Part shown: positions 11,773 to 13,235 of the stretch, piece by piece
Layout: each line of letters opens with the position of its first letter
Numbering within the stretch: the stretch's first letter is position 1
Assembly (NCBI GenBank): GCA_900552105.1
Contig: URYH01000002.1
Span: 10,652-74,651, forward strand
DNA from: an uncultured Eubacteriales bacterium
GTDB taxonomy: Bacteria; Bacillota; Clostridia; Christensenellales; UBA1242
DNA length: 64,000 nucleotides
Reading direction: 5' to 3'
Notes under the pieces: generated by a model
What the model was told of the DNA's origin: nothing
The model's database searches: none
Seen by the model: the letters and a program-made list of their open reading frames with translations, nothing else
Program-made: the position numbers and the translations under genes

Positions 11773-12059
11773 ACAAAAAAACACCCTTTCGGGTGTGTTC
11801 TTTTGGTGGACTCCAACGAACGTTGTTTACAACACGAGAATCCCTCCCGTCCACCGTACAAAAAAACACCCTTTCGGGTGTGTTCTTTTGGTGGACTTCC
11901 CAGAACGTGTTTACAACACGAGAATCCACCCCCGTCCACTATACAAAAAAAACACCCTTTCGGGTGTGTTCTTTTGGTGGACTACTCAGAACGTGTTTAC
12001 AACACGAGAATCCTTCCCCGTCCACTATACAAAAAAACACCCTTTCGGGTGTGTTCTTT
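11773..12059 (-). repeat. tandem array with an 85/86/85-bp period: four copies of the tRNA-Tyr trailer/terminator interleaved with three 51-nt tRNA-Tyr-derived foldback units
   Basis: The block ACAAAAAAA(A)CACCCTTTCGGGTGTGTTCTTTTGGTGGAC occurs four times, with TGGTGGAC starting at 11804, 11889, 11975 and 12060. The foldback units are at 11804-11854, 11889-11939 and 11975-12025 (minus strand). Each reads GTGGACGGGG..GGATTC, then CGTG-TTGTAAA-CACG, then GTCCACCA. Confidence 0.9.
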
Positions 12060-12144
12060 TGGTGGACGGGGATGGATTCGAACCATCGAAGGCAGTGCCG
12101 GCAGATTTACAGTCTGATCCCTTTGGCCGCTCGGGAACCCGTCC
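12060..12144 (-). tRNA. tRNA-Tyr(GTA), class II long variable arm, CCA encoded
   Basis: GGACGGGTTCCCGAGCGGCCAAAGGGATCAGACTGTAAATCTGCCGGCACTGCCTTCGATGGTTCGAATCCATCCCCGTCCACCA. The acceptor stem is GGACGGG/CCCGTCC, the anticodon loop is CTGTAAA, and the T-loop is TTCGAAT. Confidence 0.95.
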
Positions 12145-12219
12145 TGGAGCTGGTGATTGGAGTCGAACCAACAACCTGCTGATTACAAATCAGCTGCTCT
12201 GCCATTGAGCCACACCAGC
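12145..12219 (-). tRNA. tRNA-Thr(TGT)
   Basis: GCTGGTGTGGCTCAATGGCAGAGCAGCTGATTTGTAATCAGCAGGTTGTTGGTTCGACTCCAATCACCAGCTCCA. The acceptor stem is GCTGGTG/CACCAGC and the anticodon loop is TTTGTAA. It abuts tRNA-Tyr with no spacer. Confidence 0.93.
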
Positions 12220-12310
12220 ATATTTTGGGCGCCTCGAGCGAAACAAATGTTTCAGTCTGTCGCCTATTTTTGTCTCGCCACTTGCGTGTCGGCGAATTAA
12301 CCTTACGGCT

Positions 12311-12394
12311 TGGTGCCTTGGGGCGGAATCGAACCACCGACTTCCGTGAGATTTTGCAATCTCGTGTCGGTGCTTCTTTTTTCACACCTAAGAC
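12311..12394 (-). pseudogene. tRNA-like pseudogene: a copy of the tRNA-Phe 3' 31 nt fused to a GCA (Cys)-type hairpin
   Basis: 12311-12341 is identical to 12396-12426, the tRNA-Phe T-arm, acceptor 3' strand and CCA. Upstream is GAGAT-TGCAAA-ATCTC (a 6/8-nt loop, not the canonical 7) flanked by CACCGAC/GTCGGTG. The 5' segment GTCTTAG can pair 6/7 with CCAAGGC, but there is no canonical D-arm. Confidence 0.6.
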
Positions 12395-12395
12395 T

Positions 12396-12471
12396 TGGTG
12401 CCTTGGGGCGGAATCGAACCACCGACACGAGGATTTTCAGTCCTCTGCTCTACCGACTGAGCTACCGAGGC
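12396..12471 (-). tRNA. tRNA-Phe(GAA)
   Basis: GCCTCGGTAGCTCAGTCGGTAGAGCAGAGGACTGAAAATCCTCGTGTCGGTGGTTCGATTCCGCCCCAAGGCACCA. The anticodon loop is CTGAAAA. There is one C5-A68 mismatch in the acceptor stem. Confidence 0.9.
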
Positions 12472-12495
12472 AAATTTGGAGGTTTCCCTCCATTT

Positions 12496-12572
12496 TGGCG
12501 ATCCGGATGGGGTTCGAACCCACGACCTCCAGCGTGACAGGCTGGCGTTCTAACCAACTGAACTACCGAACC
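12496..12572 (-). tRNA. tRNA-Asp(GTC)
   Basis: GGTTCGGTAGTTCAGTTGGTTAGAACGCCAGCCTGTCACGCTGGAGGTCGTGGGTTCGAACCCCATCCGGATCGCCA. The anticodon loop is CTGTCAC and the discriminator is G. Confidence 0.93.
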
Positions 12573-12639
12573 AAACGGTTTGCCGTATCTTATGAACTCT
12601 CACTCGCCCAGAAAATCCCAAGCCAAGTGAAAAATCCAA

Positions 12640-12716
12640 TGGTGGACCTTCACGGACTCGAACCGCGGACCAACCGGTTATGAGCCGGTCGCTCTAACCA
12701 ACTGAGCTAAAGGTCC
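12640..12716 (-). tRNA. tRNA with CAT anticodon (elongator type; likely lysidine-dependent tRNA-Ile2, otherwise Met)
   Basis: GGACCTTTAGCTCAGTTGGTTAGAGCGACCGGCTCATAACCGGTTGGTCCGCGGTTCGAGTCCGTGAAGGTCCACCA. It has no initiator features. The C4/C5 acceptor positions and Ile-like body suggest Ile2, but sequence alone cannot settle the identity. Confidence 0.85.
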
Positions 12717-12721
12717 ATATC

Positions 12722-12797
12722 TGGTCGGGGTGAGAAGACTTGAACTCCCGGCCCCATGGTCCCAAACCACGTGCGCTACCAACTGCGCTACACCCCG
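12722..12797 (-). tRNA. tRNA-Pro(TGG)
   Basis: CGGGGTGTAGCGCAGTTGGTAGCGCACGTGGTTTGGGACCATGGGGCCGGGAGTTCAAGTCTTCTCACCCCGACCA. The anticodon loop is TTTGGGA with G37. It is the first gene of the minus-strand tRNA unit. Confidence 0.93.
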
Positions 12798-12814
12798 ACG
12801 GATACGACTATTTG

Positions 12815-12843
12815 ATAATATAATAAAATTGATTTGATGTCAA
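12815..12843 (-). promoter_or_regulatory. sigma-A-type promoter of the minus-strand tRNA cluster
   Basis: The minus strand reads TTGACA (12838-12843) -17 nt- TATTAT (12815-12820), about 18 nt upstream of the tRNA-Pro 5' end. Confidence 0.6.
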
Positions 12844-12940
12844 CAATTATTTCAAATTTTTTCAACTTTTTTTATTAGTTGTTTTATTGTTAAATTTTCC
12901 TTCATCTTACAAATAAAAATCATCACATAATTGAAATTTG

Positions 12941-12969
12941 TTTACAAAGTTTGTAGATTGTGTTAACAT
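12941..12969 (+). promoter_or_regulatory. putative promoter of tRNA-Gly
   Basis: TTTACA (12941-12946) -17- TAACAT (12964-12969) with an extended -10 TG at 12961-12962. It lies about 10 nt upstream of the tRNA 5' end. Confidence 0.45.
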
Positions 12970-12978
12970 AATAAGCAT

Positions 12979-13052
12979 GCAGGTGTAGTTTAGTGGCAAA
13001 ACATCAGCTTCCCAAGCTGTGGTTGCGGGTTCGATTCCCGCCACTTGCTCCA
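12979..13052 (+). tRNA. tRNA-Gly(CCC), CCA encoded
   Basis: GCAGGTGTAGTTTAGTGGCAAAACATCAGCTTCCCAAGCTGTGGTTGCGGGTTCGATTCCCGCCACTTGCTCCA. The acceptor stem is GCAGGTG/CACTTGC and the anticodon loop is TTCCCAA. Confidence 0.93.
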
Positions 13053-13074
13053 AAAGACCTTTCGGTCTTTTTTT
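13053..13074 (+). terminator. intrinsic terminator after tRNA-Gly
   Basis: AGACC-TTTC-GGTCT followed by T6. Confidence 0.7.
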
Positions 13075-13235
13075 GTGGCGGCAATCTCGCAGACTTCGTC
13101 TTGCCAAGCTTTTTGCTTGTGACCCCGCAACACATTGCGGCTTGGCGCCCGTCTCTGCGGGTGCGTCAGCGGAGTCTTCTCTCCGTTCCGACTGCGTTTC
13201 CCGCCACTTGCTCCAAAAGACCGAATGGTCTTTTT
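13075..13235 (+). other. GC-rich 123-nt hairpin-rich insert followed by a second copy of the tRNA-Gly 3' end and terminator
   Basis: 13198-13222 (TTCCCGCCACTTGCTCCAAAAGACC) is identical to 13035-13059, and the terminator stem is repeated with a different loop. The insert (13075-13197) starts with GTGGCGGCAATC, which is the rc of the tRNA T-arm/acceptor region GATTCCCGCCAC with one mismatch. It holds five consecutive 4-6 bp hairpins and is far more GC-rich than its surroundings. Confidence 0.8.

Follow-up and report, generated by a model that had tools for sequence, protein, structure and literature searches.

We found that three transfer RNA (tRNA) genes, those for Tyr, Phe and Gly, are each followed by repeat units that copy parts of the adjacent tRNA gene. 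They lie in a 64,000-nucleotide (nt) stretch of an uncultured Eubacteriales bacterium (contig URYH01000002.1, positions 10,652 to 74,651), which is called the window below and whose own numbering is used throughout. In other strains of the same species cluster, comparable units occur behind tRNA-Met and tRNA-Thr(CGT). Their sequence indicates that the units hold more than the 3′ end of the neighbouring tRNA gene: they are partial copies of that gene, rearranged and degenerate. We propose to call them tRNA-trailer repeats; their architecture is that of the RtT repeats of E. coli. The explanation that we favour, with moderate confidence, is that such degenerate copies arise by local duplication and by template switching at hairpins, and that their number changes by unequal recombination.

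The window has about 37% G+C and comes from a spore-forming Firmicute. An exact search with SpoIIAA and a SpoIIAB scan of species-representative genomes put the organism among uncultured gut Clostridia with the label Christensenellales or Christensenella. A tRNA cluster on its minus strand, Pro-Met-Asp-Phe-Thr(TGT)-Tyr, adjoins the spoIIA genes on their upstream side; spoIIAA, spoIIAB and sigF are also on the minus strand. The genes for tRNA-Gly(CCC) and tRNA-Thr(CGT) are on the plus strand. ARAGORN and the Rfam model RF00005 found eight intact tRNAs in this region. A preliminary description of the locus had reported the same layout behind tRNA-Tyr, tRNA-Phe and tRNA-Gly: part of the respective tRNA in inverted orientation, a hairpin region, and the 3′ end in direct orientation including the CCA, with a copy of the terminator as well for Tyr and Gly. 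Our analysis confirmed this layout at all three genes and the copied terminators at the two. The Tyr array and its surroundings comprise the following features.

12060-12144, minus strand: tRNA-Tyr(GTA), found by ARAGORN and scoring 49.2 bits with the Rfam tRNA model; the last gene of the cluster, with an encoded CCA, and the source of the Tyr units
11975-12059, minus strand: Tyr unit 1, 85 nt; terminator stem-loop 12037-12052, inverted copy 12008-12025, hairpin CGTGTTGTAAACACG (its first 13 nt at 11994-12006), direct GTCCACCA 11975-11982
11889-11974, minus strand: Tyr unit 2, 86 nt; terminator 11952-11967, inverted arm GTGGACGGGGGTGGATTC 11922-11939, first 13 nt of the hairpin 11908-11920, direct GTCCACCA 11889-11896
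11804-11888, minus strand: Tyr unit 3, 85 nt, the most diverged; terminator 11866-11881, inverted arm GTGGACGGGAGGGATTC 11838-11854, first 13 nt of the hairpin 11824-11836, direct GTCCACCA 11804-11811
11772-11803, minus strand: a fourth copy of the Tyr terminator, which closes the array; stem-loop 11781-11796
11729-11754: a terminator-like hairpin upstream of spoIIAA, unrelated to the Tyr array
11312-11620, minus strand: spoIIAA

Tandem Repeats Finder recognized the Tyr array (11772-12067) as 3.5 copies with a period of 85 nt and 93% matches. Read on the tRNA strand, a unit consists of the terminator hairpin ACACCCGAAAGGGTGT with a T run, the inverted copy, a small hairpin (CGTGTT-GTA-AACACG) and GTCCACCA, which is the final 8 nt of tRNA-Tyr. 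The direct copy measures 42 nt when the terminator is counted. The inverted copy of unit 1, GTGGACGGGGAAGGATTC, comes from tRNA positions 57-76 and matches at 17 of 18 bases. This match was not reached in any of 2000 dinucleotide-preserving shuffles, in which the unit core was locally aligned to the reverse complement of its own tRNA (p<0.0005; the same test was used for the other units). The inverted arm of unit 1 is predicted to pair with the tRNA 3′ end across the terminator (-50.7 kcal/mol, z-score -7.45). Most of the predicted pairing of the arm is with this upstream tRNA end, and the pairing within the unit amounts to just 6 base pairs (bp). An anticodon-loop-like piece is present as TTGTAAA, compared with CTGTAAA in the tRNA.

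Some positions of the Tyr units vary. In the inverted copy of the T stem (window 11838-12025 and strain loci L001-L008), where GATGG is expected, the two middle bases differ between nearly all units and strains; we observed GAAGG, GGTGG, GAGGG, GGAGG and G-TGG, and never the exact complement. The loop of the small hairpin reads TTGTAAA, TTGGCAAA, TTAGCAAA or TTTGTAAA in different units and strains. Counting both strands of the region, there are 10 terminator-like sites compared to 2.8 expected, and four of them are on the minus strand within the Tyr array.

The unit behind tRNA-Phe contains more of the tRNA gene, as the following features indicate.

12396-12471, minus strand: tRNA-Phe(GAA), found by ARAGORN, from which the Phe unit derives; acceptor stem with a C5xA68 mismatch
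12311-12395, minus strand: Phe unit, 85 nt; 5′ acceptor-like GTCTTAGG 12387-12394, inverted copy 12361-12376, mutated anticodon arm GAGATTGCAAAATCTC 12348-12363, the last 31 nt of the tRNA in direct orientation 12311-12341
12220-12310, minus strand: the remainder of the Phe-to-Thr spacer, with CCGACACG (inverted), GACTGAAA (anticodon-loop-like) and CTCGAGGCGCC (3′-end-like)

The inverted copy of the Phe unit, GAAGCACCGACACGAG, corresponds to tRNA positions 41-56 at 15 of 16 bases (p<0.0005), and the direct copy of the last 31 nt is perfect. One correction to the preliminary description concerns the hairpin GAGATT-GCAA-AATCTC (12348-12363). Its GAGATT stretch looks inverted but belongs to a direct, though mutated, anticodon-arm copy, of which it forms the 5′ strand. 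Truly inverted is the reverse complement of positions 44-56. We had considered inverted gene conversion as a reason why this part of the Phe arm tracks the anticodon stem of each species, but rejected it; since the strand is a direct copy, ordinary direct homogenization suffices. The unit is predicted to fold into a rod with an ACCA tail (-32 kcal/mol, z-score -4.1). The 91-nt remainder of the Phe-Thr spacer has three matches that occur in the order seen in the Phe unit, each with p between 0.07 and 0.19. It is possibly an older, decayed Phe unit; the matches are suggestive of this rather than a demonstration.

The Gly unit is on the opposite strand and has a longer middle region.

12979-13052, plus strand: tRNA-Gly(CCC), found by ARAGORN and Rfam, the source of the Gly unit
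13053-13235, plus strand: Gly unit; terminator 1 13052-13074, inverted GTGGCGGCAATC 13075-13086, GC-rich multi-hairpin core 13087-13197, direct copy of the last 18 nt of the tRNA 13198-13215, terminator 2 13215-13235

The inverted piece GTGGCGGCAATC matches the reverse complement of the T loop, the 3′ strand of the T stem and the start of the acceptor strand at 11 of 12 positions (p=0.02). Within the GC-rich hairpin region, which is 111 nt long, CTTGCCAAGCT at 13100-13110 resembles the anticodon arm (10 of 11 positions). The unit is predicted to be closed by a 7-bp stem, GUGGCGG/CCGCCAC, with the 8-nt tail UUGCUCCA (-59.8 kcal/mol, z-score -4.8). Its inverted arm is predicted to extend the palindrome of the terminator into the tRNA 3′ end (-23.7 kcal/mol, z-score -5.0). 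Terminator 2 has the same stem as terminator 1 with the loop reverse-complemented (TTTC vs. GAAT), and the two terminators are 95% complementary as an inverted repeat and, by hand count, identical at 16 of 20 positions (80%) as a direct repeat. Terminator 2 faces a convergent membrane-protein gene (13296-13718, minus strand). In L002, L005 and L007 (approximately 1690-4330), a block of roughly 3 kilobases (kb) lies between the Gly unit and this small membrane-protein gene, and is absent from the window (approximately 13236-13300). It carries genes for a methyltransferase, an acetyltransferase and an ADP-ribosylglycohydrolase, as well as a small open reading frame, and we found no further copy of the tRNA-Gly 3′ end flanking it.

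The units share several properties. Anticodon-loop-like pieces occur in every unit, including CTCATAAC in the Met units (8 of 8 positions). The Phe and Met units have a 5′ acceptor-like start located 1-4 bases past the upstream CCA, and their predicted folds have an acceptor-like stem with an ACCA tail. The predicted folds of the Phe, Met and Gly units have z-scores of -3.3 to -4.8, with no independent covariation. The direct repeats start at tRNA position 46 (Phe), 52/53 (Met), 59 (Gly), 69 (Tyr) and 66 (Thr), and at 56-58 in a Tyr unit of another species (L077) and the Phe unit of L010. Breakpoints cluster at T-loop positions 56/57. The DNA between the direct repeats (40-165 nt) contains inverted and direct pieces of the cognate tRNA. 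Each inverted arm lies 34-130 nt from its source, with which it is predicted to pair, and always adjoins a hairpin that it lengthens: the terminator for Tyr and Gly, and the copy of the anticodon arm for Phe. This anatomy fits the earlier proposal that a local process copies the tRNA in both orientations.

It had also been claimed that each element is specific to its adjacent tRNA and is not one dispersed repeat, and our results agree. The parts that are not derived from tRNA are single-copy, in that no second copy of the unit cores was found in the 64-kb window. The GC-rich cores of the Gly, L077 Tyr, Thr and L010 Phe units are unrelated to one another in either orientation. On these two grounds we rejected a single family of mobile elements. 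No unit was detected as a tRNA by ARAGORN or RF00005, even at E<=1. In Rfam searches of window positions 10500-16000 at E<=1, and of three related loci (L003, L010 and L077) at E<=0.1, we found only the intact tRNAs and sub-threshold chance matches.

Comparison of strains revealed that whole units come and go; a test for variation in copy number had been suggested in the preliminary description. We used ten other assemblies (loci L001-L010) of the same species cluster, whose SpoIIAA protein is identical to that of the window and whose spoIIA operon is 93-98% identical to it. The same units were seen in these assemblies, in numbers from 0 to at least 3. There are 0, 1, 2 or 3 Tyr units per assembly, 0, 1 or 2 Met units, 0 or 1 Thr(CGT) unit, and a truncated Gly unit or 1 or 2 complete ones. 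Behind tRNA-Phe we found a diverged hairpin relic without the 3′ copy, one unit, two units, at least two units across a scaffold gap, or the variant of L010. This L010 unit is unrelated to the other Phe units; its 134 nt include the inverted piece GGAATCGAAC and a 19-nt 3′ copy (inverted match p=0.006). Beyond the units, the strain loci contain no extra copies of the last 14 nt of any of the tRNAs, and we consequently rejected genomic-island boundaries as an explanation.

The Met and Thr(CGT) units were found only in other strains, where the following two genes of the window have counterparts with units.

12640-12716, minus strand: tRNA-Met(CAT), unit-free in the window
15170-15245, plus strand: tRNA-Thr(CGT), unit-free in the window

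The 78-nt Met unit is inserted exactly after the CCA in L009 and occurs twice in L010; elsewhere the site is cleanly empty. Its inverted match is 9 of 9 bases (p=0.03). A Thr(CGT) unit of approximately 180 nt is present in six other strains, and L010 has a clean empty site. In order, this unit comprises a terminator, a disrupted second copy of tRNA-Thr and a 3′-end copy. The pseudo-copy is identical to the gene at 34 of 35 positions over its 5′ half, but has an insertion of about 75 nt after the anticodon loop and a damaged T loop. Its anticodon arm occurs in direct-inverted-direct order, and immediately next to the direct 5′ end is GCCACACAA, a reverse-complement copy of tRNA positions 3-11 (inverted match 9 of 9, p=0.04). 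Both the Met and the Thr empty sites are clean and bounded by direct repeats. We also considered whether the 67-nt Met-Asp spacer is a relic of a Met unit, but the similarity is not significant (p=0.12).

Two further differences among strains concern the surroundings of the units. Between tRNA-Tyr and spoIIAA there are two haplotypes: the window has the type with the repeat array (11621-12059), and L002, L005, L009 and L010 (5381-6000) have a type with another terminator, a gene for a 122-amino-acid desulfoferrodoxin-domain protein and no repeats. Downstream of sigF, a leucine-rich-repeat (LRR_5) protein is encoded by a 656-amino-acid open reading frame in the window (8101-10071, minus strand) and has 758-762 amino acids in the ten strain loci.

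The units are not confined to this locus or species, and related species of Christensenellales have them too. A SpoIIAB scan of species-representative genomes gave 80 loci of related species (L011-L090), and together with the window and L001-L010 these form 91 sequences with 317 tRNAs. A copy of the last 12 nt of the tRNA occurs within 500 nt downstream of 20 of the 317 tRNAs, and upstream of none. Strong inverted matches to the cognate tRNA were found downstream in 7 of 230 cases, upstream in 0 of 230, and in none of 1150 comparisons with non-cognate tRNAs. Apparent Met matches in this survey were tRNA-Asp genes cut by contig ends, and were discarded. Phe units occur in other species as two units of 84 nt in L015, one of 66 nt in L043 and two of 69 nt in L048; L046 and L012 have further ones, and L044 has a decayed one. 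A 151-nt Tyr unit, with CGAAG-CC-CTTCG at its junction, is present in L077. Considering the spacer behind tRNA-Phe in 33 species, its length ranges from 0 to 378 nt (0-37 nt in nine of them), and every stage from intact units to bare hairpin relics is represented.

The Phe units of different species have the private motif AAATCTCNNGNAAG in common and therefore descend from one ancestor. Their anticodon-loop-like motif in other species is CTGAAAG. Despite this common origin, their 5′ acceptor-like starts (GCATTGAG, GCATCGAG, GCAGCGG and GTCTTAG) and 3′ copies track the acceptor stem of each species' own tRNA-Phe, indicating continuing exchange with the working gene. The acceptor stems themselves are informative in this respect. 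The C5xA68 mismatch of the working tRNA-Phe is present in all eleven assemblies, and the working tRNA-Phe of the species represented by L015 (4724-4799) and L097 has a different mismatch, T4xC69. In both cases, the 5′ strand of the pseudo-unit pairs at the mismatched position; for example, position 4 of the L015 unit pairs with C69, and position 4 of the working tRNA does not. These mismatches fit a flow of sequence from the pseudo-copy to the gene, as if the 3′ strand of the gene had been overwritten. Among L001-L010 and the window, tRNA-Thr(CGT) segregates as alleles that differ in three acceptor base pairs (GCTTGTG/CACAAGC and GCTAGTA/TACTAGC). Where a Thr pseudo-copy is present, it has the 3′ strand of the other allele, in either order, so that the alleles of gene and pseudo-copy are swapped between strains. 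This swap likewise fits sequence flow from pseudo-copy to gene.

Some related species have other arrangements in this cluster. A different tRNA-Phe spacer of about 106-121 nt, without any obvious tRNA-derived part, occurs in L017, L019, L022-L024, L034-L036 and L064. It has three hairpins, for example GATGTGCCC...GGGACATC, AAAACCAACA...TGTTGGTTTT and TTAGTAGTT...AACTACTAA. Many of L011-L090 have contig ends or N gaps inside the tRNA cluster (for example L028, L042, L047 and L032), which is consistent with repeats disrupting short-read assembly. We also scanned metagenomes for tRNA-Phe with a second 3′ end 42-72 nt later, and obtained 10 stretches, of which three or four have Christensenellales-type units.

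The preliminary description stated that no described element class has these properties. However, the 178-bp repeat of E. coli tyrT/tyrV (RtT RNA, RF00391) has the same architecture. In E. coli K-12 (L091, 1286500-1287330), where the region is annotated with rttR and tpr, there are three 178-bp units downstream of tyrV and a fourth between tyrT and tyrV. Each unit downstream of tyrV ends in the final 19 nt of tRNA-Tyr, and also contains GGGGAAGGATGAGAAGCTTCGA, which matches the reverse complement of the T arm and acceptor strand at 19 of 22 positions (reached in 0 of 500 shuffles). The four units score 133-138 bits with RF00391. In the consensus of this family, the inverted copy (5′ strand) and the direct copy of the tRNA-Tyr 3′ end form the closing stem, and a 9-nt tail ends in CCA. 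Copy number is variable in E. coli as well: RtT matched 1-9 places in 4726 of 5426 complete genomes, and 700 had no match. With its gathering score of 45 bits, RF00391 did not match window positions 10500-16000 at E<=1, nor L003, L010 or L077 at E<=0.1. The function of RtT is described as unknown (bioRxiv 10.1101/2024.07.17.603846; PMC3318445). According to PMC3318445, which cites Bosl and Kersten 1991, and to bioRxiv 10.1101/2024.07.17.603846, RtT is a processed RNA made from the tyrT operon.

In our favoured explanation, a local duplication would place a second tRNA 3′ part downstream of the gene, and would include the terminator where the tRNA is the last gene of its operon. At existing hairpins, namely the terminator, the anticodon arm or the T arm, DNA polymerase may switch templates and write the reverse complement of one hairpin flank onto the other. 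This would lengthen the hairpin and produce the direct-inverted-direct order. The direct 3′-end copies (8-42 nt) could be substrates for unequal recombination or slippage, which would gain or lose whole units and hold the 3′ copy identical to the working gene. The anatomy of the units, their specificity for the cognate tRNA, the statistics, the polymorphism among strains, the occurrence in related species and the likeness to RtT are demonstrated; the template-switch steps and the recombination, like the transcription and processing considered below, are inferred. Template switching is known to create and perfect hairpins in RNA genes (PMC8794818), and could explain why the inverted arms prolong terminator, anticodon-arm and T-arm hairpins, as well as the reverse-complemented loop of Gly terminator 2.

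A mutational origin is suggested by the fact that every inverted arm adjoins a hairpin and that the polymorphism involves whole units bounded by direct repeats. It is further suggested by concerted evolution, by dispensability and decay across species, and by the lack of mobile-element genes. In the gene tables of the ten loci, up to 6 kb on either side, there are no Pfam domains of integrases or reverse transcriptases, and the called genes within 6 kb on each side include none with a recombinase Pfam domain. Because the units lie inside or just behind tRNA operons, they are presumably transcribed at least in part. Since the predicted closed hairpins end in a tRNA-like NCCA tail, tRNA-processing enzymes probably handle them. 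Nonetheless, we regard the units mainly as by-products of a mutational process that have at most a local role, for which extra terminators before the spoIIA operon and processing sites in the tRNA precursor are candidates.

Several observations weigh against this explanation. A single clean template switch is not enough to derive any of the units from its tRNA, and the filled Met and Thr alleles are composite. We identified no source for the GC-rich cores of the Gly, Thr, L077 Tyr and L010 Phe units, or for some of the sequence within the 25-nt Tyr junction and the 78-nt Met insertion. T-loop-targeting integrases cross over at positions 56/57, the same place as the recurrent unit breakpoint. 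The Phe unit persists across species whose SpoIIAB proteins are just 59-72% identical, and keeps its acceptor-like closing stem and ACCA tail; this retained stem hints at selection. The inverted arm is found in all seven unit types of this lineage, but of five further metagenome contigs that have a duplicated tRNA-Phe 3′ end and are apparently unrelated, only one has a significant arm. Its scarcity elsewhere means that either a lineage-specific mutational bias or a lineage-specific function is needed. Finally, the copy numbers come from short-read assemblies, two of which have N gaps in the arrays, and may be inexact.

The units might instead give rise to small RtT-like RNAs that resemble tRNAs, are cut from the tRNA precursor by tRNA-processing enzymes and act in trans. 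Such an RNA would be a closed helix, made from the inverted and direct copies of the cognate T-stem and acceptor strand, with a free NCCA tail. It might be a decoy or sensor for proteins that bind acceptor ends, or might participate in a starvation response, by analogy to a proposal for RtT. We consider this idea unlikely. The architecture matches that of RtT, including the closing stem and CCA tail of the Rfam consensus, and the acceptor-like stem with ACCA predicted for Phe and Met and the closing stem with 8-nt tail predicted for Gly would suit it. So would the processed RNA of the tyrT operon that PMC3318445 and bioRxiv 10.1101/2024.07.17.603846 report for RtT. The Phe unit is kept in several species and its acceptor-like stem follows species-specific changes (position 4 and C69 in L015), and inverted arms are more frequent in this lineage than among other, apparently unrelated bacteria whose tRNA 3′ ends are duplicated. 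However, units are missing in many strains and related species, and the hairpin loops and inverted T-stem bases vary freely among units. In Tyr units 2 and 3, most of the inverted arm has nothing to pair with. Because a terminator precedes the Tyr, Gly and Thr units, most transcripts would exclude them. Since template switching itself gives rise to apparent compensatory changes (PMC8794818), covariation is not decisive here, and RtT provides no established function to argue from. A more specific proposal is that each isoacceptor concerned (Tyr, Phe, Gly, Met and Thr) has its own kind of processed, trans-acting, CCA-tailed mimic of the top half of the tRNA (acceptor and T stems), as a counterpart of RtT. 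We think this rather improbable. If it is true, processing nucleases, the CCA-adding enzyme, tRNA-targeting toxins or the starvation response are examples of possible targets, and RtT-like RNAs would be a widespread class with independent origins in distant phyla.

The remaining alternatives invoke other ways of making the units. They could be scars or miniature derivatives of integrative elements such as phages or islands, whose tyrosine recombinases cross over in the T or anticodon loop of a tRNA. The displaced tRNA 3′ part would then be the direct repeat, and repeated integration would give tandem arrays. Direct repeats of tRNA 3′ ends are indeed the classic signature of integration (PMC9897764). 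In the window Gly unit, the L077 Tyr unit, the L010 Phe unit and metagenome stretches L092 and L096, the direct copies start at T-loop positions 56-59, and metagenome stretch L098 has a copy that extends from the anticodon loop in the 3′ direction. Both tRNA-Met and tRNA-Thr have empty as well as filled sites, and the gene blocks beside tRNA-Gly and tRNA-Tyr differ between strains. Yet there is no integrase gene within 6 kb in the ten loci, and no third copy beside the strain-specific gene blocks. The 40-165 nt between the repeats include cognate 5′-acceptor-like and D-arm-side sequence, which is foreign to attachment sites. The direct repeats vary from 8 to 42 nt, and five tRNAs within 3.2 kb would demand five site specificities. 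We consequently view such scars as quite improbable. Even less probable, to the point of being hard to credit, is an RNA-mediated route, in which the 3′ part of the tRNA, or of its precursor, is reverse-transcribed, a snap-back makes the second strand, and the resulting hairpin of complementary DNA (cDNA) is inserted beside the gene. The inverted-plus-direct layout with a small apex does resemble snap-back cDNA, and in L001 and L008 the complement of CCA is part of the Tyr inverted arm (TGGTGGAC...). The turning point of the Phe palindrome is in the anticodon loop, near position 37, and position 37 of tRNAs is a commonly modified base that stops reverse transcriptases. But the CCA is encoded in the gene and so is no proof of an RNA intermediate, and the copied terminators and trailers belong to the context of the gene, not to mature tRNA. 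Moreover, the flanks of the ten loci contain no reverse transcriptase, and no mechanism of targeted insertion is evident.

Chance similarity or mis-assembly of repeats is effectively refuted. It is true that single short matches are marginal (Gly 11/12, Met 9/9 and Thr 9/9, with p of 0.02-0.04) and that the arrays of two scaffolds have N gaps. By contrast, the inverted matches exceed shuffled controls, and all seven unit types have the feature. The upstream and non-cognate controls were both negative (0/230 and 0/1150). The same units, with unit-specific substitutions, occur in eleven independent assemblies made by different assemblers. This recurrence, at five tRNAs, rules out both chance and gross mis-assembly. 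None of the refuting outcomes named in the preliminary description applies: the pattern extends beyond this locus, recurs among the assemblies and exceeds the shuffles.

Although the RtT repeat was described decades ago, neither its origin nor its function is agreed upon. Units of the same architecture but without homology to it, at five tRNAs in an unrelated Gram-positive gut lineage, mean that the architecture is recurrent and not a one-off. Either tRNA genes and their terminators are hotspots of hairpin-driven replication errors that produce inverted and direct copies of the end of the gene, or selection has more than once favoured a mimic of tRNA ends. The strain series, with 0, 1, 2 or 3 units as well as empty sites, makes both ideas testable. 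The acceptor mismatches of tRNA-Phe are, in addition, a concrete instance of a working tRNA gene that seems to receive sequence from its pseudo-copies. In practice, metagenome assemblies break at these repeats within tRNA clusters, and a partial copy of a tRNA can be misread as the scar of an integration.

We now compare the units with known systems. Like tRNA pseudogenes that arise by tandem duplication, the Thr(CGT) unit plainly contains a second tRNA-Thr gene, and the Phe and Met units have roughly the length of a tRNA. Unlike pseudogenes, the units have no RF00005 score at E<=1, the D-arm region is replaced by inverted T-arm sequence, and the 3′ end is that of the working gene.

Tandem inversion duplications in Salmonella are comparable to inverted triplications of the ODIRA type. 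Replication errors at short inverted repeats produce such direct-inverted-direct triplications in yeast (ODIRA, PMC4689423). The units have the same order, their junctions are also at short hairpin-forming repeats, and in both cases later deletions remodel palindromic junctions. However, known triplications span kilobases to hundreds of kilobases and are under gene-dosage selection, whereas the units involve tens of bases, with a middle copy of 9-20 nt.

Quasipalindromes made by template switching (PMC8794818; PMC7202029) likewise consist of the reverse complement of nearby sequence, placed beside an existing stem that is extended or perfected. Those described are single events identified by ancestral reconstruction, whereas the units are composites whose single steps are not reconstructed, and their direct duplication and tandem arrays need extra processes. 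The tRNA fragments left by integrated elements (PMC9897764) are also direct partial 3′ copies downstream of an intact gene, and some start in the T loop. The units differ from them in having no integrase and no foreign cargo, and in that the DNA between the repeats is derived from tRNA and includes inverted pieces.

The closest architecture is that of RtT. In both systems the units immediately follow a tRNA gene, share its transcription unit and form tandem repeats (Tyr in the window; Phe, Gly and Met in other strains). The last part of each unit exactly duplicates the tRNA 3′ end, CCA included, over 19 nt in E. coli and 8 nt (Tyr), 31 nt (Phe) or 18 nt (Gly) here. An inverted copy of the T arm or acceptor, GC-rich hairpins in between and a polymorphic copy number are also common to both, and the Gly unit is predicted to close in the same way, with its 7-bp stem and 8-nt tail. 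There is no similarity in sequence or to the covariance model; the window units do not match RF00391 and are analogues of RtT rather than members of the family. The Tyr, Phe and Met units are also shorter (78-86 nt), and those for Phe and Met keep a full acceptor-like stem. While RtT is known only for enterobacterial tRNA-Tyr, the units described here expand this architecture to three tRNAs in one window and five in one species of a Gram-positive lineage.

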